44,459 bases of DNA from contig JBAZBD010000002.1 of assembly GCA_041671645.1 (NCBI GenBank), forward strand, positions 1-44,459, in the 5' to 3' direction. Both the position numbers and the translations under genes were made by a program. This DNA is from Patescibacteria group bacterium (lineage in GTDB: Bacteria > Patescibacteriota > UBA1384 > XYA2-FULL-43-10 > 1-14-0-10-43-13). The notes beneath the pieces are model-generated. The model had not been told where the DNA came from, ran no database searches, and worked only from the letters and a program-made list of their open reading frames with translations. Below are positions 3 through 32,704 of the stretch, piece after piece. Each line of letters opens with the position of its first letter. The stretch's first letter is position 1.

Positions 3-3000
3 AACGATTTCTATAATTTAACTGCTGCAGCATCTGCAAACCGTACGATTCAAGTCACCGCATCCACTACCCAGACCGTATTTAATACATTGTCCATAAA
101 CGGTACAGATGCTTCGAAAAAAATAACACTTGTTTCGTCTTCTCCTGGGACTCGTTGGAACATTGATCCGCAGGCTACCAAATCAGTCTCATGGGTCACT
201 GTTTCTGATTCGACCTCGACTAATGCGATCAACGCTACAAATTCGACAGAGGGGACCCCTTCTTCTACTACGAATTGGCTTCTCTTGACTGACCACACTC
301 TGTCATACTCCGCAGTAGCCAACGGATCGATTGTCGGCACGAATCCTCAGACAGTTGCCGATGGCGCTGATGGTACCGAAGTGGTCGCTACACCTGCTGC
401 CAACTATCACTGGGTTAGTTGGTCTGATACATATCCGACAGCAGCCAGAACTGACTTAAATGTAACTGGTGATATTACCGTTTCTGCTAGTTTTGCAATC
501 GACACTTTTACTTTGACCTATTCCGCAGGGGCCAATGGCTCCATCGTCGGTGTTTCTCCACAAACTGTAAATTATGGTGCAAATGGTTCAGAGGTTACAG
601 CCACTCCTGCCGCCAATTATCACTTTACTTCCTGGTCTGATGGTATCCTGACAGCGGCTAGGACTGACACAAATATAACTGCGAACAAGTCAGTGACGGC
701 CAGTTTCGCTATTGATACCCACACTCTCACTTACTCTTCTGGTGCTAATGGTTCTATTGTTGGTACATCCCCTCAGACGGTCAATCATGGGGCTGATGGT
801 TCAGAAGTTGTGGCCACGCCTGCTGCTAATTATCACTTTACTTCTTGGTCTGATGGCGTACTTACGGCAGCTCGAACTGATACAAACGTCGTTGCAAATA
901 TTTCAGTTACGGCTAGTTTTGCAATCGACACTTTTACTTTGACCTATTCCGCTGGTGCCAATGGTTCAATCGTCGGCGATTCGCCTCAAACTGTGAATTA
1001 TGGTGCAAATGGTTCAGAGGTTACGGCTACTCCTGCCGCTAATTATCACTTTACCTCTTGGTCTGATGGTGTCTTGACGGCGGCCAGAACAGATACAAAT
1101 ATAACTGCAAACAAATCAGTCACAGCTAGCTTCGCAATTGATACATACACATTGGCTTATTCTGCTGGCGCCAATGGCTCAATCACTGGCACGACTCCTC
1201 AGACTGTAAACCACGGATCTGACGGCTCGCAGGTCACGGCAACTGCAGACGCTAACTACCACTTTACTTCCTGGTCTGACGGTGTACTTACTGCGGCAAG
1301 GACAGAGACCAATGTAACTGCTGACAAATCGGTGACTGCGAGCTTCGCAATTAATACTCATACTTTGTCATACTCGGCTAGTGCCAATGGTTCAATCACT
1401 GGCGTCTCGCCGCAAACCGTAAATCACGGCGCAAGCGGGTCTCAGGTTACGGCAGCTCCCGCGGCAAATTACCATTTTGTCGAGTGGTCGGACAATCATT
1501 CAACGGTTGCTAGCCGTACCGATTCCAATGTAACGGCAGATATCAGCTCGACTGCTAGCTTCGCGATCGACACTCACAATATTACTGCTTCTACCGATGC
1601 GAATGGGAACATCAGCCCGCTTGGTATCACAGCCGTCGATTATGGTACAGACCAGGATATTACTTTTACCAGTGATCCCGGATACCACATTTCAACACTC
1701 TTGGTCGACGGAGTGCCTCAATCTACTCTTACTTCGCCATATACATTTGTTGGTGTTACTGAAAATCATACGATTTCTATCACTACAGCCGCTGACAATA
1801 CCTGTGTTTGGGTTGGTCTTGGCGCCGATAGCAATTGGTCGACATCGCTGAACTGGTCGGGAAATGAAATTCCAGTTTCGACCTGTGACGTCATCTTTAA
1901 TTCCTCTTCTAGCACAGCCTCGACTCTTGACGCTGGCTTCACAAATCATATCAAATCACTCTCAATCATTTCTGGCTACACCAATACAGTTACCTTGGCT
2001 AACGACTTGCAAAATGATGGAGATTTAAACCTTGCCGCAGGCACACTGAAGGCCAACAATTATACCCTGAATATTGCTGGGGATTGGGATAACACTGGTG
2101 GCACTTTTGTGGAGGATACTTCCACTGTAAATTTCAATGGATCCGTTGCCGCTAGTGTCAGTGCTAACGGCGGTGAGTTTTACAGAGTAACATTTGCTGG
2201 AGTGTCAGCTATTAGCACGCCAAGCGTCTGGGTGGCCAATTACAACACAAATAATGTGTCCAAGATAAATTCGTCAAATGGTTCAAAAACCGGCGACTAC
2301 TCGACCGGCAGTTATTCCTATGGATCAGCAATCGATACGAGCGGTTTCGCTTGGGTCACTAATATGGGCAGCGATACTGTTTCGAAGATCAATGTTTCAA
2401 CCGGAGCTAAGATTACTGACTATGCTACGGGGTCAATTCCGAAGGGTGTGGCCATCGATGCTAGCGGCTTTGTTTGGGTAGCCAATTTTGGCGGTGGCAC
2501 AGTCTCAAAAATCAATCCTTCGACTGGCGTCAAGACGAACTATACGACCGGCTCAGGATCTACTGGTGTGGCCATCGATGCTAGCGGCTTTGTTTGGGTC
2601 ACTAACTATTCTGGGACAGGTTCGGTTTCAAAAATTAACGCATCCACTGGATCGAAAGTTGCTGATTATGCAGTCGGTACAAACCCAACTGGTGTGGCCA
2701 TCGATGCTAGCGGCTTTGTTTGGGTCGTCAACACAGGCAGTAATAATATTTCAAAGATCAACGCACTGACGGGCGTGAAAGTAGCTGATTATGCCACAGG
2801 TTTGAGTCCTGCTGGGGTCGCGGTTGATACCAACGGTTTTGTTTGGATCTCGAACGGTGGTGCGAACACAATTTCGAAAATGAATCCTTCGACTGGATCC
2901 AAGACAGATTATGCTACTGGTTCTAGCCCTGCTGGCGTAGCTGTCGACAGTAGCGGCTTCATCTGGATCGCGAACACTTCTGGCAATACTATTTCGAAAA

Positions 3001-6000
3001 TGAATTCTTCGACTGGATCCAAGACTGATTATTCAGTTGGAACTTCTCCATATTCCTTCGGCGATATGACGGGCTTTGCTCTTCAGCAGTTCGTTTTGGG
3101 TGGCACGAACTCTAGTAGTGCCTCATATACTCTGTCTTCTGGGTTAACTATGACTGACGAGCTGACTATTTCTTCGGGTATTGTGTCGGCCGGCGCCAAC
3201 ACAATATCAGCCGGAAAATTTATCCAGAGCGGAGGCTACTTTACTGCTCCGTCGACTACCATGTCTGTCTCGGGCGATTTCCAGCGTTCTGGGGGCGTTT
3301 TTGTCAGAAACCTAGGTACAGTAAGTTTAGCTGGCGTAGCCAGCTCGACCCAAGTAGTTTCCGGATCAACAACGTTCAATAATTTATCTGCCACGACAAC
3401 CTCTGCTCGGACTATCCAATTTGCTGCTGATTCGAGCCAGGCGGTATTGGGGACCTGGACGGCTACCGGCGCGGCTGCTCAACTTTTATCATTGGCTCTA
3501 AAAACTGGCGATAGCGGCGTCTGGAATATTAATCCTACTGCTTGGAGCGTCGATTATGTTAACGTTTCAAACTCAACCAACTTCGCTTCTACTCCGATCA
3601 GCCCGACTCATTATGATTCAGCGTCTCTGACCGCAAATAATACAAATTGGTTCTCACTCAGCTTGGTGGGCCATACTATTACCTCTTCTGTGGTTGGGTC
3701 CAATGGCACCATCTCACCTAGCGGCGCTACCTCGGTCGCTGATGGAAGCAACCAAACCTATACAATTACCCCTGGGACTGGTTATCACATCTCCGATATC
3801 AAAATTGATGGGATAAGTCTTACTGGAACCCTGGCTTCGACCTACACTTTTTCAAATGTTACAGCCGAACACACGATTGCGGTTACGTTCGCAGCAAATG
3901 ATGTTTGTGTCTGGGACGGTGGAGCTGATGATGAAAACTGGAGCTCGGCTTCAAACTGGTCGAACGATACGACGCCATTTGCGACTTGCGATGTTATTTT
4001 CAATAGTACCTCAAGAAAAAATTCTATAATTGATACTATCTTCAGTAGTCATATCAAATCTCTCGCAGTTAATACTGGTTATACCGGAATTATTTCTGCC
4101 AGCAACGATCTGGCCAACGACGGAGACTTTGTTTTAAGTTCCGGAACATTTTCGGCTGGCTCTAAGACAATCAATATCGCTGGTTCTTTATCGCTGGCTC
4201 CAAGCTCGACCGCTGTATTCGAAAAAGGGAGTAGCACCATAAATTTCAATCCAATCGCAACAGGCAAGACAATTACAACCAGCGGCCAGCAACTCGGTAA
4301 TTTGACTTTCAACGGAGTAGACGCAAATTTAACTGGGGTTGCGATTACCTCCAACAACAATATTGGCCTTCTTAGAAAGGGGATTATTGTTGCCGGCTGG
4401 ACGCTCCAGGACAATTTGAGTGCGGCATCAGTGGCTGTGGTTTCCGGGACTCTTGTAGACGCAGGTAAATCTGTAACTGTGGCTGGCAGTATCAATATTC
4501 CGTACAAGATTGGCCTCTTGGCTTCGACAGGTCTTTGGACGCAATCTGCCAGCGGCAATATTTCAAACGGCGATATGCGCAATACCTTTGGCAGTTTGAC
4601 GATAGCTGGCGCAGGAGTAACTACAAATATGATTGGAGCGGTAAAAGTCGGGTTAAATGAAGGATCAGCCGGAGCGCTAACCATGGGCCCTGGGACATTG
4701 AATGGCAACAACAATTCTCTCATAGAATATATGCCGAGAAATGATGGTCTTGGGCTCGACAATCTCATAGTCGGCTCGAAATTGAGCACATTTACCATGT
4801 ATCCGCTAGGCAATATACTTCAGAAAGCAATCTCTTTGCCAAATAATTTTGGGAATATTCAGATTCAGAAGAATCCCTCCACTAAATTCACTGCTACTGG
4901 CGACTTTAACTTTGGCAATAATAATTTGACGGTTAATAATGATAGTACTATCAGAAATACTGGCTATTTGGATATGGGTCAATACAATCTGACCTGTAAT
5001 AATCTTACAATCGGCTCAAATTTCGGAAGCGTAGCGAATCCTTCTTATTACCAAATTGCTGGTGGGCTCAAAATTAGCAGTGGTAGCATCAACGTCGGCG
5101 GCAATCTGGCTGCTGCTCATCCTCTAAATTTTGGCGACACCCTTGATCTTGGATCTGGAACATTAAATTTTTCTGGCTCAAGTTTCAATACCAATTATCT
5201 CAACTTTACTGCCGGCACTTCTACGGTAAATTTCACGAGTGCCACCGGCTCTACCCAGGCGATTTATAGCTCTGCCACATTCAATAATTTATCAATTGCG
5301 ACGACTTCTGCTCGCATTATCAAATTTGCTGCTGGTACAACCCAGACTGTTCTTGGTACCTGGACAGCCACTGGCGCGCCAGATCAATTGCTGACCATGG
5401 CTCTAAAAGCAGGCGATACTGGTTTGTGGAGTGTCAATCCAGCTGCTTGGAATGTCGACTATGTCAATGTCAGCAATTCAAACAATCTGGCGTCATCCAA
5501 AATAAATCCGGCTCATTATGTCGACGGTGGGGGCAACATTAACTGGTTTGACCCGGCTGTCGCGCCGATTCCTGATGAACCTGGGACTGATCTGGGCACG
5601 ATTGTTGACGATGTTATCGACACCGTTACTACAGCAATCGATGTTATCACAGATGCCATAACCAATTTCATCACAAATATCGTCGAAACTTTGGCTCAAA
5701 GTGTGATCGGACTGTTCGTCCAAAACGCGGTCGAAAATATTTCTGCAGCAATCGCCGCAACCGCTACTGCGATTAGAAATGTATTATCAAAAATTGGGTT
5801 GACACCGGAGGTTGCATCTAGTGTCGCAACTGCGGTTACCGCTGTTTCGATTGCTGCAGCAGCAATCGCCGCCGCGCCTATGGCAGCCTCAGGCTCCCTG
5901 TTCAACCTTGGAGAAATATTTCATTCTATTTGGCAGCCAATCGCAAATTTTGTTACTCGAAAACGTCGTCGTAATTGGGGCAGGGTTATAGAGGAGGGAA

Positions 6001-6755
6001 CGGGGGTTCCTATCGCAACTGCCAAGATTAATCTGGTCAAACTCTATCGAGAAAGCAGAGAGGTGATGTATGAAAGTCAGAAGGTCGTTGCCTCGACCTA
6101 CACCGATAAATCTGGGCAGTATGGTTTCGTGGTCGAGCCAGGCAAATACAAATTGGAAGTCGTCAAGGATAAATTCAACGTTGTCGATACGAACTCCTTC
6201 CTTGATTTTTATCATCCAAATACGCTTTTCGAAGTGCGGGACTACAAACAGGGGCTGGTAATCAAGGATATTACGATGGCTACTGGCGCCAAGAACATGG
6301 CCAAAAATTTCAAATTTACTCATTTGCTTCAGGCGATCCAAAAAATTTCAGCCTATGTCTCGATCGGTTTCCTGATATTCGGGACCGCGAGTATTATTCC
6401 AGTCGTTACAGAAAAGTTTTCGCTAATCAATCTCGGAATTGTGGCTCTTTATATATTATTTTGGGTAATGAATGTCAAAAACATTCTGAAGAAATCGCCA
6501 TGGGGGATTGTTATTAGCAAGGAGGATCATATGGGCATCCCACTCGTCTTGGTCAGGATCATCAACAAAAAAACAGGCCAACTTGTCGGCACGACTATTT
6601 CAAACGAAAAAGGAAGATTCTCGACATTCATCAGCAAAGGAGACTACGAAATTCGGGCTTCGAAGGGCGGCTATGTTCTAGAAAAACCGATCGTTTACAA
6701 GGTCGGGGGTGAGAAAAATGTTCTCAACAAAACTATCGAAATGGTGCCAGAGTAG
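3..6755 (+). CDS. Giant secreted/cell-surface repeat protein, 5'-partial. The frame is open to the window edge, so the TTG at 90 in the ORF track is not the true start.
   Basis: No stop occurs in this frame from nt 3. Translated nt 3-290 (NDFYNLTAAASANRTIQV...VSWVTVSDS) is a third copy of the FNNLS..SARxIxF...VDYVNVSNS module seen at ~3369-3655 and ~5275-5550. The protein holds 6 x 71-aa InlB-B/Flg_new-like repeats, 7 blades of ~41 aa (VSKIN.STG.K.DY..G..P.G.A.D..GF.W..N), and duplicated CVW.G...D.NWS...NWS....CDVIFN modules. The C-terminus has a hydrophobic Ala/Ile-rich segment, TM helices and two carboxypeptidase-regulatory-like beta-sandwich domains (GQYGFVVEPGKYKLEV; GRFSTFISKGDYEIRA). 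Confidence 0.9.
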   Translation, partial: NDFYNLTAAASANRTIQVTASTTQTVFNTLSINGTDASKKITLVSSSPGTRWNIDPQATKSVSWVTVSDSTSTNAINATNSTEGTPSSTTNWLLLTDHTLSYSAVANGSIVGTNPQTVADGADGTEVVATPAANYHWVSWSDTYPTAARTDLNVTGDITVSASFAIDTFTLTYSAGANGSIVGVSPQTVNYGANGSEVTATPAANYHFTSWSDGILTAARTDTNITANKSVTASFAIDTHTLTYSSGANGSIVGTSPQTVNHGADGSEVVATPAANYHFTSWSDGVLTAARTDTNVVANISVTASFAIDTFTLTYSAGANGSIVGDSPQTVNYGANGSEVTATPAANYHFTSWSDGVLTAARTDTNITANKSVTASFAIDTYTLAYSAGANGSITGTTPQTVNHGSDGSQVTATADANYHFTSWSDGVLTAARTETNVTADKSVTASFAINTHTLSYSASANGSITGVSPQTVNHGASGSQVTAAPAANYHFVEWSDNHSTVASRTDSNVTADISSTASFAIDTHNITASTDANGNISPLGITAVDYGTDQDITFTSDPGYHISTLLVDGVPQSTLTSPYTFVGVTENHTISITTAADNTCVWVGLGADSNWSTSLNWSGNEIPVSTCDVIFNSSSSTASTLDAGFTNHIKSLSIISGYTNTVTLANDLQNDGDLNLAAGTLKANNYTLNIAGDWDNTGGTFVEDTSTVNFNGSVAASVSANGGEFYRVTFAGVSAISTPSVWVANYNTNNVSKINSSNGSKTGDYSTGSYSYGSAIDTSGFAWVTNMGSDTVSKINVSTGAKITDYATGSIPKGVAIDASGFVWVANFGGGTVSKINPSTGVKTNYTTGSGSTGVAIDASGFVWVTNYSGTGSVSKINASTGSKVADYAVGTNPTGVAIDASGFVWVVNTGSNNISKINALTGVKVADYATGLSPAGVAVDTNGFVWISNGGANTISKMNPSTGSKTDYATGSSPAGVAVDSSGFIWIANTSGNTISKMNSSTGSKTDYSVGTSPYSFGDMTGFALQQFVLGGTNSSSASYTLSSGLTMTDELTISSGIVSAGANTISAGKFIQSGGYFTAPSTTMSVSGDFQRSGGVFVRNLGTVSLAGVASSTQVVSGSTTFNNLSATTTSARTIQFAADSSQAVLGTWTATGAAAQLLSLALKTGDSGVWNINPTAWSVDYVNVSNSTNFASTPISPTHYDSASLTANNTNWFSLSLVGHTITSSVVGSNGTISPSGATSVADGSNQTYTITPGTGYHISDIKIDGISLTGTLASTYTFSNVTAEHTIAVTFAANDVCVWDGGADDENWSSASNWSNDTTPFATCDVIFNSTSRKNSIIDTIFSSHIKSLAVNTGYTGIISASNDLANDGDFVLSSGTFSAGSKTINIAGSLSLAPSSTAVFEKGSSTINFNPIATGKTITTSGQQLGNLTFNGVDANLTGVAITSNNNIGLLRKGIIVAGWTLQDNLSAASVAVVSGTLVDAGKSVTVAGSINIPYKIGLLASTGLWTQSASGNISNGDMRNTFGSLTIAGAGVTTNMIGAVKVGLNEGSAGALTMGPGTLNGNNNSLIEYMPRNDGLGLDNLIVGSKLSTFTMYPLGNILQKAISLPNNFGNIQIQKNPSTKFTATGDFNFGNNNLTVNNDSTIRNTGYLDMGQYNLTCNNLTIGSNFGSVANPSYYQIAGGLKISSGSINVGGNLAAAHPLNFGDTLDLGSGTLNFSGSSFNTNYLNFTAGTSTVNFTSATGSTQAIYSSATFNNLSIATTSARIIKFAAGTTQTVLGTWTATGAPDQLLTMALKAGDTGLWSVNPAAWNVDYVNVSNSNNLASSKINPAHYVDGGGNINWFDPAVAPIPDEPGTDLGTIVDDVIDTVTTAIDVITDAITNFITNIVETLAQSVIGLFVQNAVENISAAIAATATAIRNVLSKIGLTPEVASSVATAVTAVSIAAAAIAAAPMAASGSLFNLGEIFHSIWQPIANFVTRKRRRNWGRVIEEGTGVPIATAKINLVKLYRESREVMYESQKVVASTYTDKSGQYGFVVEPGKYKLEVVKDKFNVVDTNSFLDFYHPNTLFEVRDYKQGLVIKDITMATGAKNMAKNFKFTHLLQAIQKISAYVSIGFLIFGTASIIPVVTEKFSLINLGIVALYILFWVMNVKNILKKSPWGIVISKEDHMGIPLVLVRIINKKTGQLVGTTISNEKGRFSTFISKGDYEIRASKGGYVLEKPIVYKVGGEKNVLNKTIEMVPE
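294..1575 (+). repeat. Six tandem 213-bp (71-aa) coding repeats with a 426-bp higher-order period
   Basis: The repeat consensus is xTLTYSAGANGSIVG.SPQTVN.GA.GSEVTATPAANYHFTSWSDGVLTAARTDTN.TA.KSVTASFAIDT. Units 2 and 4 are nearly identical. The 39-nt string tagttttgcaatcgacacttttactttgacctattccgc occurs at both 488-526 and 914-952. Confidence 0.9.
2226..3090 (+). repeat. Seven tandem ~120-126-bp coding repeats (beta-propeller blades, NHL/YVTN/Vgb-lyase-like)
   Basis: The 35-nt string ggtgtggccatcgatgctagcggctttgtttgggt is identical at 2445-2479, 2565-2599 and 2691-2725. The blade peptide motif recurs seven times. Confidence 0.85.
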
Positions 6756-7129: not shown

Positions 7130-7888
7130 ATGGAAGAGAAGTTTCGAAAATTGAGAAAGTTTAACATTTTTATGGCCTGCTTACATTTCGCTCAGGCAGT
7201 TGTGATGCTGATATTGGCCACTGACATGAAAGTTTCGGTCTTTACCTCATTTCTCAAATTTGACATGGCAACAGAAAGTCTAATCCCTGATCCAAAAGTT
7301 TGGTTCAATATCCCACTGGTCGCCCTCATTGTCTCATTCCTTTTTATTTCTTCCTTGGCCCACTTAATGGTTTCTCTGCCCAAGATCAACGATTGGTACA
7401 ACAAAAACTTGGCCAAAGGCGCAAATTATGCACGTTGGATTGAGTACGCTTTTAGCTCCTCAATCATGATCTTGGTAATCAGTATGTTGGTCGGAATCTC
7501 CGACATTTCGGCCCTGATCCCAATCTTCTTCGTCAATGCGGCTATGATTCTGTTTGGTTGGATGATGGAGCTTCACAATCAGACTACTAGCAAGGTCAAT
7601 TGGGCATCATTCATCTTCGGTTGTATCGCTGGAATTGCCCCATGGCTTGTGATCGCTCTCTATCTTTGGAGCCCGGGAAGCGCTTCAAATCCTCCAACAT
7701 TTGTCTATTGGATTTTCTTTTCAATTTTCCTTTTCTTCAATGTTTTTGCTATCAATCAAGTTCTCCAGTACAAGAAAGTGGGCCGTTGGAGCGACTATTT
7801 GTATGGAGAGAGAGCGTATATTATTCTTTCGCTCGTTGCAAAATCTCTCCTCGCCTGGCAGGTTTTCGCCGGCACATTGAGACCATAA
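7130..7888 (+). CDS. Heliorhodopsin (7-TM retinal protein)
   Basis: 252 aa. The strings RWIEYAFSSSIMI, FGCIAGIAPW and GERAYIILSLVAKSLLAWQVFAGTLRP closely parallel heliorhodopsin 48C12 as I recall it (RWVEYSLSSSVMI, FGCIAGIVPW, GERAYIVLSLVAKSALAWQIFSGTL). Schiff-base Lys K238 (codon 7841-7843), counterion Glu E105, and H19/Q22/H78 are all present. A GGAGG SD sits 5 nt upstream. Confidence 0.9.
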   Translation: MEEKFRKLRKFNIFMACLHFAQAVVMLILATDMKVSVFTSFLKFDMATESLIPDPKVWFNIPLVALIVSFLFISSLAHLMVSLPKINDWYNKNLAKGANYARWIEYAFSSSIMILVISMLVGISDISALIPIFFVNAAMILFGWMMELHNQTTSKVNWASFIFGCIAGIAPWLVIALYLWSPGSASNPPTFVYWIFFSIFLFFNVFAINQVLQYKKVGRWSDYLYGERAYIILSLVAKSLLAWQVFAGTLRP

Positions 7889-27240: not shown

Positions 27241-27272
27241 AAAAAAGGTCATGCCTCTGCATGATCTTTTTT
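27241..27272 (-). terminator. Rho-independent terminator directly after the tRNA 3' end
   Basis: On the minus strand the stem is GATCATGC / GCATGACC (plus coordinates 27247-27266) followed by TTTTTT (27241-27246). Confidence 0.7.
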
Positions 27273-27316
27273 GTGGTGGGCCCGGCAGGGTTCGAACCTG
27301 CGACCAATCGGTTATG

Positions 27317-27513
27317 CGTGCCAACACGGCTTTCGCCGCCTCTTTCGAGTTTATGGTTTGGACTGTCCCTTTACCCTTTTTGAGGGTATCTGCCGTCCAG
27401 TCTCTACACCTTCCTCCCGAGTTATCGGAAGGCTTGGCTCGGGATTGCCATCGGTTAAGAAGGTTTCCCCGAATTTGACAGATTATCACCCACCAGTTTC
27501 CCGATGGGCAGCC
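27317..27513 (-). ncRNA. Group I (IC3, Azoarcus-like) ribozyme core
   Basis: The minus strand reads GGCUG-CCCAUCGGGAAACUGGUGGG-UGAUAAUCUGUCAAAUUCGGGGAAACC...AUGGCAAUCCCGAGCCAAGCCUUCCGAUAACUCGGGAGGAAGGUGUAGAGACUGGACGGCAGAUA... This parallels the Azoarcus intron strings GUCAAAUUCGGCGAAACC, UAUGGCAACGCCGAGCCAAGC and GAAGGUGUAGAGACUAGACGGCA. The IGS GGCUG (27513-27509) pairs with exon CGGCU, placing a U-G pair at the splice site. Confidence 0.8.
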
Positions 27514-27924
27514 CCTTTAAAAATATGCGTATCCAATGTATAATTCGGTTATGAACGAAATCACTAACTGCATAGTTTGCAAAAAACTGCTGAAGGGCAG
27601 ACAAACAAAATTCTGTTCTGCCATTTGCAAAAGTAAACTATTACAGAGCTATCCGTCGCAAAAGAAGCGTGGCCTTGCCCGAAAGCTTGATTTGATCAAA
27701 GCATTTGGGGGGCGTTGTTCTATTTGCGGTTATAGCCGAAATCTGGCCGTCCTAACATTCCATCATTCTCAATTTGAAAAAAGATTCAAATTAGATATGA
27801 GATCACTTTCGAACAGAAAACTGTCCGAAGTACTATCCGAAGCCAAGAAATGTATACTAGTCTGCCAGAATTGTCATGCTGAATTGCACAACCCAACATT
27901 GGATTTAGCTAATTTATTAAATGA
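27317..27924 (-). mobile_element. Group I intron (608 nt) inserted between U33 and C34 of the tRNA
   Basis: The 5' exon ends in U and the intron ends in G (complement of c27317). The 197-nt ribozyme core lies at the 3' side. A ~410-nt insertion in the P1 loop carries the HNH gene on the opposite strand. Confidence 0.8.
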
Positions 27925-27946
27925 AGCCGACTGCTCTAACCACTGA
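27551..27946 (+). CDS. HNH homing-endonuclease-like protein, encoded antisense to the intron
   Basis: The N-terminal Zn-finger is CIVCKK...FCSAICKS. The HNH core is CSICGYSRNLAVLTFHH...KCILVCQNCHAELH. An alternative ATG lies at 27536. The last 22 nt run antisense through the tRNA 5' exon. Confidence 0.8.
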   Translation: MNEITNCIVCKKLLKGRQTKFCSAICKSKLLQSYPSQKKRGLARKLDLIKAFGGRCSICGYSRNLAVLTFHHSQFEKRFKLDMRSLSNRKLSEVLSEAKKCILVCQNCHAELHNPTLDLANLLNEADCSNH

Positions 27947-28012
27947 GCTACAAGCCCATAAATTCTAGCTGCTGCTCTTCTCAAGAGCCGTACTCAATAT
28001 ATCAATCAATAC

Positions 28013-28034
28013 TCCCTTTTACAAGGGATTTTTT
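28013..28034 (+). terminator. Plus-strand terminator downstream of the HNH gene
   Basis: TCCCTT (28013-28018), TTAC, AAGGGA (28023-28028), then TTTTTT. Confidence 0.5.
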
Positions 28035-32472: not shown

Positions 32473-32549
32473 TGCGGGGTGGAGCAGCCTGGTAGCTCGC
32501 ATGGCTCATAACCATGAGGTCGTTGGTTCAAATCCAACCCCCGCTACCA
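32473..32549 (+). tRNA. Initiator-type tRNA-fMet (CAU), CCA encoded
   Basis: UGCGGGGUGGAGCAGCCUGGUAGCUCGCAUGGCUCAUAACCAUGAGGUCGUUGGUUCAAAUCCAACCCCCGCUACCA is nearly collinear with E. coli tRNA-fMet. The 1:72 pair is U-U and unpaired, an initiator hallmark. Only two of the three G-C pairs in the anticodon stem are present. Confidence 0.85.
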
Positions 32550-32627: not shown

Positions 32628-32704
32628 GGCAGGGTAGCTCAGTTGGTTAGAGCACAGGACTCATAAGCCTGGGGTCGAGAGTTCAAATCTCTCCCCTGCT
32701 ACCA
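32628..32704 (+). tRNA. Elongator tRNA-Met (CAU), CCA encoded
   Basis: GGCAGGGUAGCUCAGUUGGUUAGAGCACAGGACUCAUAAGCCUGGGGUCGAGAGUUCAAAUCUCUCCCCUGCUACCA has D-arm, variable-loop and T-arm strings like E. coli elongator Met. The 1:72 position is paired (G-U). Confidence 0.85.

Follow-up and report, generated by a model that had tools for sequence, protein, structure and literature searches.

A probable mobile IC3 group I intron at U33/C34 of a predicted tRNA-Ile2(CAU) gene, with an antisense HNH gene folded into its P1 stem

We examined an interrupted transfer RNA (tRNA) gene, and the element that interrupts it, in a 44,459-nucleotide (nt) stretch of DNA from a Patescibacteria group bacterium (assembly GCA_041671645.1, contig JBAZBD010000002.1, positions 1 to 44,459 of the forward strand; hereafter the window). 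The gene lies on the minus strand at 27957-27274 and is split into halves of 33 and 43 nt by an insert of 608 nt, a group I intron (27317..27924, first base U27924, terminal base G27317) that was confirmed to sit between U33 and C34 of a tRNA with anticodon CAU. Antisense to the intron, on the plus strand, runs an open reading frame (ORF) for an HNH endonuclease (27551..27946). An earlier note on this DNA, made by a model from the letters alone, had described the split gene, and its lengths, strand and positions were all borne out; the HNH gene accounts for the approximately 390 nt between splice site and internal guide that it had left unexplained.

The 5′ exon (27957-27925, GGGCUUGUAGCUCAGUGGUUAGAGCAGUCGGCU) supplies the 5′ strand of the acceptor stem, the D arm, the 5′ strand of the anticodon stem, C32 and U33, and ends in GUCGGCU. 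The 3′ exon (27316-27274, CAUAACCGAUUGGUCGCAGGUUCGAACCCUGCCGGGCCCACCA) starts with CAUAACCGAU, so that the anticodon CAU comes first, and its CCA is encoded. Joined in silico, the two exons form a 76-mer that ARAGORN calls as a clean cloverleaf with anticodon CAU, and with its intron search switched on the same program called a 684-nt gene annotated i(34,608). In default mode on the window it did not detect the interrupted tRNA gene. Alternative junctions were rejected, as any shift gives either an 8-nt anticodon loop or an intron that ends in a base other than G, which upholds the argument of the earlier note that U33/C34 is the only fitting position. A scan of metagenome contigs yielded 14 with an uninterrupted 43-nt junction sequence, and one uninterrupted tRNA gene (L083) is identical to the spliced product at 75 of 76 positions. 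Because these uninterrupted genes span the junction, the two halves belong to one gene and are joined correctly; the possibility that they are remnants of unrelated tRNAs, which the earlier note had proposed to check against intron-less alleles, is thereby set aside.

Relatives were gathered by fetching 80 loci that encode homologues of the HNH ORF, one genome per species. The identical junction (…CGGCU, an intron ending in G, then CAUAACC…) was found in 55 species-level genomes other than the window, and these together with the window itself (L001) make up the 56 loci compared below, all 56 of which have U at position -1 and a terminal omega G. By record title the 55 genomes comprise 26 Chloroflexota (mostly Anaerolineae), 21 Patescibacteria and eight others from Armatimonadota, Latescibacteria, Krumholzibacteriia, Acidobacteriota and unclassified sources. 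The exons, the ribozyme and the HNH gene of the window are each closest to different phyla.

The ribozyme matches the Rfam group I intron model RF00028 on the minus strand (27532-27336, 62.9 bits against a gathering score of 50, E 9.4e-14, model positions 1-253), and its core of 55 base pairs (27317..27508) contains all four core strings quoted by the earlier note, several of whose helix assignments needed revision. P2, drawn there as CCCAUC/GGUGGG with a GGGAAAC loop, is present as an 8-base-pair (bp) helix, CCCAUCGG/CUGGUGGG, closed by a GAAA tetraloop (27508-27489), and the AUCUG/CAGAU helix of P3 extends to the 7 bp AUCUGUC/GGCAGAU (27483-27477 with 27394-27388). P4 pairs UCGGGG with UCCCGA (27472-27467 with 27444-27439), P5 lies within 27463-27448, and P6 (GCC/GGU) is continued by P6a, CCUUCCGA/UCGGGAGG (27438-27413), the helix that had been mislabelled P8. 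P7 is formed by G(A)GACUG and CAGUCC (27404-27398 with 27365-27360). The true P8, ACCCU/AGGGU (27387-27373), contains the CCCU/AGGG pairing previously taken for P9, and P9 itself is CCA/UGG. The two GAAA-capped hairpins are there as described and are P9a (27349-27340, CUC-GAAA-GAG) and P9b (27338-27327, CGGC-GAAA-GCCG).

This core was tested for covariation by aligning the last 212 intron nt of the 56 loci and projecting the structure drawn for the window onto the alignment. From P2 to P9b, 93.1% of cells were paired, compared with 80.5% in shuffled alignments (none of 500 shuffles scored as high), and sliding the partners by one to three columns reduced pairing to 31-50%. Both sides change in 44 of the 55 pairs, and P3 to P8, including the P3/P7 pseudoknot, are kept by compensatory changes. 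The window retains all 23 invariant ribozyme columns and deviates at five positions of the near-invariant ones. It looks like an intact ribozyme, for which splicing can be predicted. Two relatives (L009:1027-2408 and L072:1649-2408) have longer introns of 1307 and 684 nt, with extra sequence within the ribozyme part, and align poorly.

At its 5′ end the intron is bound by the internal guide that the earlier note had located, GGCUG at 27513-27509, which pairs with exon CGGCU and sets a U-G wobble at the splice site. The guide is part of GGGGCUG (27515-27509), the 3′ strand of P1, and the 5′ strand (27923..27929, minus strand) consists of CGGCU and the first two intron bases, UC, with the splice site after U27925. 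The minimum free energy fold of the entire 684-nt precursor contains this pairing. Across the loci, U-1 is paired with G in 46/46 cases, position -2 forms C-G in 46/46, and position +1 forms U-G or C-G in 44/44; in one relative (L071) the exon reads GGACU, with A at -3, and the guide has the matching U, a compensatory A-U pair.

P1 continues from this core into a long interrupted stem. Its 5′ strand (27887..27921) carries UUUAAUAAAU (27921-27912), AUCCAAUGU (27904-27896) and GGUUGUG (27893-27887) and is antisense to the final ~14 codons of the HNH ORF, and its 3′ strand (27516..27553) carries CAUAACC (27553-27547), ACAUUGGAU (27539-27531) and AUAUUUUUAAA (27526-27516) and is antisense to the HNH promoter and start codon. 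Mini-constructs, in which the first 46 intron nt were joined to the ~50 nt preceding the guide, form a long hairpin when folded, and RNAalifold on 39 of them recovered two helices besides the P1 core, one of them of 10 bp, with compensatory changes in 13 of 18 pairs. When the 31-pair stem drawn for the window was projected onto the relatives, 83.2% of cells were paired; shuffles gave 71.0% (none of 500 reached the observed value) and slid partners 36-49%. In all, 18 pairs show compensatory change, and both sides vary in 10/10 pairs of the second helix and 7/9 of the third. The distal helix, GGUURUG/CAUAACY, is 93% paired and nearly invariant. One of its strands, GGUURUG, is antisense to the His-Asn-Pro codons of the HNH motif, and the other, CAUAACY, to RGTTATG at the start of the ORF. 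A P1 extension of ~30 bp built from the promoter and final ~14 codons of the HNH gene is thus a predicted structure with covariation behind it; given the positions of the two segments (27921-27887 and 27553-27516), promoter and start codon would sit on one side of an RNA stem, opposite the end of the coding sequence. A CGGTTATGA sequence is located at the ORF start. We had considered the CAUAAC(CG) copy there as a scar of the target site or an autoregulatory operator, and dropped this idea in favour of its pairing with GGUURUG as the distal P1 helix; the copy could still act as an operator, since this helix shows almost no covariation.

The HNH gene itself encodes 131 amino acids plus a stop codon, fills about two thirds of the intron, and overlaps the 5′ exon in antisense with its last 22 nt, stop included. 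Another in-frame ATG lies upstream at 27536, inside the promoter. The gene is called as 131 amino acids on the matching Logan contig (SRR18595301 assembly), and an exact look-up of the 136-residue form found no record, as gene calls begin at the second ATG. The protein has an N-terminal Cys4 zinc ribbon, itself invariant, followed by CxxC…HH…N…CxNCHxExH, and it is matched by PHROG families of HNH endonucleases (3e-16, 1e-14 and 7e-13). Its homologues form 354 clusters at 90% identity in public data; C56, C59, H71, H72, N88, C105, N107, C108, H109 and H113 are invariant among them, and the window ORF keeps every one. The AlphaFold2 model has a mean confidence (pLDDT) of 85.6.

A sigma-70-type promoter precedes the gene on the plus strand (27516..27544), with TTTAAA as the -35 box (27516-27521), a 17-nt spacer and TATAAT as the -10 box (27539-27544), matching 10 of 12 consensus positions. 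In 50 related loci the pattern is TTGaca at -35 to -30, a 17-nt spacer, TAnAAT at -12 to -7 and the ATG at 0, seven nt past the -10 box, the same distance as in the window (A of the ATG at 27551). No Shine-Dalgarno sequence was seen in the upstream sequences listed for the related loci or before the window ATG. Because the ATG falls where promoter geometry leads one to expect the start of transcription and no Shine-Dalgarno sequence precedes it, the mRNA is probably leaderless, its predicted first nucleotide being the A of the start codon; with a start at 27551, the ATG at 27536 would not be transcribed. The ORF could be delimited in 51/56 loci, and in all 51 it is situated within the P1 loop. 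In most relatives a TAA or TGA stop codon straddles the 5′ splice site, being the complement of intron positions +2 and +1 and exon U-1, and the ORF of these relatives therefore fills the P1 loop exactly.

Together these features lead us to regard the locus as very likely a mobile IC3 group I intron that splits a tRNA-Ile2(CAU) gene at U33/C34, a reading in which splicing and homing are both deduced from sequence. Transcription of the minus strand would give a precursor of ~700 nt, in which exon CGGCU and the first two intron bases would pair with GGGGCUG to form P1 and place U33 in the U-G wobble, and the interrupted stem of ~30 bp would hold the splice site by the ribozyme despite the insertion of a ~330-nt loop. 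Two guanosine-dependent transesterifications would follow, a free G attacking after U33 and the 3′-OH of U33 then attacking after G27317, and the joined tRNA would be matured and its C34 lysidinylated. The HNH protein, expressed from its own -35/-10 promoter on the opposite strand within the P1 loop and presumably starting at the ATG described above, would most likely nick or cut tRNA-Ile2 genes that lack the intron, near GGCT^CATAACC, and the intron would be copied into the cut allele during repair. The target gene is found both with and without the intron.

Several observations weigh against this reading or parts of it. The ORF has no significant match in Pfam or NCBIfam, the best model being AI2M-like_HNH (E 0.047, 14 versus 23 bits), and matches in the PDB are weak (E 0.06 by profile search and E > 0.5 by Foldseek with the AlphaFold2 model), the top hits being HNH nucleases; we place the protein in a divergent HNH lineage, and its nuclease activity is a prediction. 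In the window, intron position +2 is C, which adds a C-G pair to P1 and turns the stop codon into GAA, and the ORF enters the antisense of the exon by 22 nt and gains seven residues (EADCSNH); with the usual splice-site stop lost, this copy of the endonuclease could be slightly impaired. The promoter assignment assumes that host promoters follow a sigma-70-like consensus. Support for the distal P1 helix (helix 4) comes from conservation, because the helix is nearly invariant and the wobble position of the Asn codon shows no covariation. Finally, P9 is 3 bp long in the window, and P5 reads CCUUCU…CGAUGG (27448-27463), as in a few other loci (e.g. L032, L049 and L051), whereas most relatives have CCUAAG…UAUGG, which we take to be the canonical 11-nt GAAA-tetraloop receptor.

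The alternative that survives best is that the antisense ORF is not the homing endonuclease of this intron, being either silent or a nuclease with another role that has lodged in the P1 loop; such a role could be, for example, phage-derived targeting of tRNA genes or defence. The relatives of the protein lend this some weight. In 13 mostly gammaproteobacterial genomes (L056, L061-L063, L065-L067, L069, L070, L073, L075, L076 and L078) a tRNA-Ile2 gene is interrupted by an intron of ~235-270 nt at the Azoarcus position (CUCAU, intron ending in G, AA), and a free-standing HNH homologue lies on the opposite strand 60-130 bp upstream of it (369 bp in L073), as in L061, where the tRNA gene occupies 1935-1608 on the minus strand and the HNH gene 2001-2375 on the plus strand. 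Among viral contigs from IMG/VR (L096-L175), 73 of ~80 fetched HNH relatives are no more than 1.5 kb from a tRNA gene and 51 are in arrays of at least three tRNAs, and none of the curated HNH models reaches its threshold. Set against this, the ORF has stayed with the intron across phyla, as have its promoter and its placement in the P1 loop, none of the catalytic residues varies, and intron-less target alleles exist. Where a free-standing relative adjoins an intron-bearing tRNA-Ile2 gene, it looks like an endonuclease acting in trans beside an ORF-less intron, an arrangement that suits homing better than an unrelated role. We therefore consider a role unconnected with homing unlikely and retain the reading of the ORF as the intron's own endonuclease.

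Other configurations of the same family were also seen. In a metagenome-assembled genome (MAG) of Rhodothermales (L068:1833-2576) a 669-nt intron at 36/37 of tRNA-Ile2 (RF00028, 77 bits) contains the HNH homologue in sense, differing from the window in both HNH orientation and insertion site. Two viral contigs (L098:893-1719 and L106:1017-1914) show the architecture of an intron at 33/34 of a CAU tRNA, although no guide sequence was assigned in L106; some of the 'viral' contigs could be misclassified cellular DNA. The HNH family is thus a tRNA-gene-associated one, tied to two intron lineages in the same tRNA. As side observations, L104:966-1296 adjoins a transfer-messenger RNA (tmRNA) gene and L100:2083-2334 adjoins a permuted tmRNA hit, and in two Anaerolineae MAGs (L080:1944-2600 and L081:1944-2581) a tRNA-Thr(UGU) gene is apparently split at 33/34 (…CCGGCU, then an intron running from G to G, then UGUAACC) by introns that score 80 and 102 bits with RF00028 and encode, in sense orientation, a distant homologue of the HNH protein (43-44% identity).

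A second alternative concerns the host gene, since a tRNA with anticodon CAU might be an elongator or initiator tRNA-Met, and its intron would then be of the Met.2Ug or fMet.2Ug class. The best match of the spliced 76-mer in each of 5,426 E. coli genomes is an annotated tRNA-Ile; identity is 81.6% across the full 76 nt and reaches 88.4%. The window contains two other CAU tRNA genes, one (32473-32549) with what we take to be the initiator pattern, GGAGCAGCCUGGUAGCUCG, and one (32628-32704) with the presumed pattern of elongator tRNA-Met, and the TAGCTCAGTGGTTAGAGC…TTGGTCGCAGGTTCGAA combination in the spliced tRNA is a pattern of the Ile family. Because the best E. coli matches are tRNA-Ile and the two other CAU genes are read as fMet and Met, we identify the interrupted gene with strong confidence as tRNA-Ile2, the CAU tRNA in which C34 would be converted to lysidine. 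In favour of tRNA-Met, ARAGORN names every CAU anticodon Met, and the tRNAscan-SE 2.0 paper notes that Ile2 and Met are hard to separate and sometimes mis-annotated; in view of the matches and of the initiator and elongator genes already accounted for, we judge this alternative quite improbable. The tandem fMet and Met genes, so read, are encoded on the opposite strand at a distance of ~4.5 kb from the interrupted gene, and both are intron-less despite having the same CU^CAUAA loop that the intron targets.

It might also be that the interrupted gene is a decaying pseudogene, whose ribozyme no longer splices and whose tRNA is supplied from elsewhere in the genome. The short P9, the non-canonical P5 receptor and the lost stop codon at the splice site would suit such decay, but P1, the G-binding P7 and J8/7 are intact, every invariant and all but five of the near-invariant ribozyme columns are kept, the exons differ from an intact tRNA at a single position in 76, and the ORF retains each of its invariant residues, so that decay seems still less probable than a tRNA-Met and we keep to the reading of an intact, potentially self-splicing element.

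The position of the intron had been called unusual in the earlier note and taken as a sign of an independent insertion event; neither claim holds. Williams (2020, bioRxiv 10.1101/2020.01.27.920355) lists Leu.3Ug, Arg.5Ug, fMet.2Ug and Ile2.5Ug as the four classical bacterial classes of tRNA intron, numbers the positions of the anticodon loop from 0 to 7, which gives 33/34 the index 2 and 36/37 the index 5, and includes Tpc1.fMet.2Ug, Sba135.Met.2Ug and Gba28.Ile2.2Ug among its seeds, and the tRNAscan-SE 2.0 paper reports 36 genomes in which group I introns account for an apparent absence of fMet or Ile2 genes. On the strength of these classes, seeds and genomes, 33/34 is not a new site, nor an unusual one: the intron of cyanobacterial tRNA-fMet, which the examples in the earlier note had left out, classically occupies it, and Ile2.2Ug is named as a class. 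That the intron was acquired independently, at a new site that distinguishes it from the known introns of bacterial tRNAs, is barely credible, because, although the site differs from those in tRNA-Leu (34/35) and in Azoarcus tRNA-Ile (36/37, a position confirmed in the 13 mostly gammaproteobacterial loci), fMet.2Ug is classical, Met.2Ug and Ile2.2Ug are among the seeds of that preprint, the identical junction recurs in 55 other genomes and group I introns are reported to hide fMet and Ile2 genes from detection. All CAU tRNAs share 33/34 within loops of CU^CAUAA, and what we see is one widespread intron lineage at a site common to all of them and not a local novelty.

Comparison with known systems places the element more closely. 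The window has the defining features of the Ile2.2Ug class, namely insertion at index 2 of tRNA-Ile2, U at -1 and omega G, as Williams (2020) gives them; the one published seed of the class, Gba28, has a different core and was the least similar of the nine Williams seeds with which the ribozyme was compared pairwise, and the preprint describes no ORF, ORF orientation or extended P1 stem for the class. The IC3 assignment is a judgement drawn from the inventory of helices and from the 77-84% identity of the ribozyme to seeds given as IC3 by Williams. The likeness to Azoarcus proposed in the earlier note holds at the level of this subgroup, and the Azoarcus pre-tRNA-Ile intron (Ile2.5Ug) shares with the window the same tRNA species and the IC3 core motifs GUCAAAUUCGG.GAAACC, CCGAGCCAAGC and GGUGUAGAGACU.GACGGCA. 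It differs in lying three nt further 3′, after CAU (36/37), in its length of 205 nt, and in having neither an ORF nor the P9a and P9b hairpins, and it scores below the seeds of Arg.3Ug, fMet.2Ug, Leu.3Ug, Thr.3Ug, Arg.5Ug and Met.2Ug against the window, the first two being the best matches. The fMet.2Ug intron of cyanobacteria resembles the window in its site, its CUCAUAA loop, the GGCU^CA… logic of P1 and an IC3 core with P9a and P9b, and it too can hold an endonuclease ORF, that of I-Ssp6803I in Synechocystis PCC 6803. Its host tRNA is the initiator, however, and I-Ssp6803I is a PD-(D/E)XK enzyme of 150 amino acids, not an HNH protein, and is presumably encoded on the sense strand.

An antisense endonuclease gene that needs its own expression signals is likewise found in nuclear rDNA group I introns (e.g. 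L2066; PMC9548176), which differ in being eukaryotic, in encoding His-Cys box enzymes, in Pol II-type expression with spliceosomal introns and in having rRNA as host. A full-text literature search, incomplete in its coverage, found no bacterial case of an antisense endonuclease gene in a group I intron. Intron type and site are thus already known, and the element belongs to a catalogued, widespread class; the single feature for which we found no description is the HNH gene, which runs antisense under its own promoter and is interwoven with the P1 stem. The free-standing homing endonucleases of cyanophage psbA, in what is termed 'collaborative homing', are said to act beside intron insertion sites. 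The 13 mostly gammaproteobacterial genomes with a free-standing HNH gene upstream of an intron-bearing tRNA-Ile2 gene resemble that arrangement, whereas in the window the HNH gene is inside the intron.

Around the element, a hairpin followed by a run of T that resembles an intrinsic terminator (27249..27264, minus strand) begins 10 nt past the tRNA 3′ end. A candidate promoter for the tRNA gene, TTGTAA-17-TATATT with a TG element (27996..28024, minus strand), is suggested by its match to consensus ~39 nt upstream of the tRNA 5′ end, and overlaps a hairpin at 28013-28028 that resembles a plus-strand terminator downstream of the HNH stop codon. The window is cellular chromosome, with genes for heliorhodopsin, NrdD, FtsH, MurJ, LepA and an L,D-transpeptidase. 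The heliorhodopsin gene (7130-7888; Pfam PF18761, E 1.5e-102) and an ORF of 2,221 amino acids upstream of it (90-6755) are unrelated to the intron.

Beyond this locus, genomes of Patescibacteria and Chloroflexota can seem to lack the tRNA that decodes AUA, because standard tRNA finders miss the intron-split gene. In most relatives (L002-L058) the intron mode of ARAGORN placed the splice site wrongly and produced spurious tRNA-Leu, -Ser, -Phe and -Pro anticodons. Automated annotation of intron-split tRNA genes is unreliable unless the rule of U at -1 and omega G is applied. The tRNA that decodes AUA is essential, and if the gene described here is the sole tRNA-Ile2 gene of its host, AUA decoding depends on a ribozyme.

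We put forward more tentatively, as a combined proposal that we think rather doubtful as a whole, that the HNH cassette is built into the ribozyme and is not passive cargo, that its expression is coupled to splicing, and that endonucleases of this kind were captured stepwise by two intron lineages. If so, the -35 box, spacer, -10 box and start codon would constitute the 3′ strand of P1 and the last ~14 codons, with the catalytic His-Asn, its 5′ strand, so that one stretch of DNA would be constrained as RNA helix, promoter and coding sequence at once. Convergent transcription, or pairing of the antisense transcript with the pre-tRNA, could for instance link expression of the endonuclease to splicing, and, taken with the free-standing and sense-strand relatives at 36/37 introns, an HNH protein that targets tRNA genes would have been captured step by step by the two lineages. 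The locus offers a compact natural case in which an endonuclease gene lies opposite the ribozyme strand and lends its promoter and the end of its coding sequence to an RNA helix, and relatives of the element in other configurations could show how endonuclease genes enter introns.

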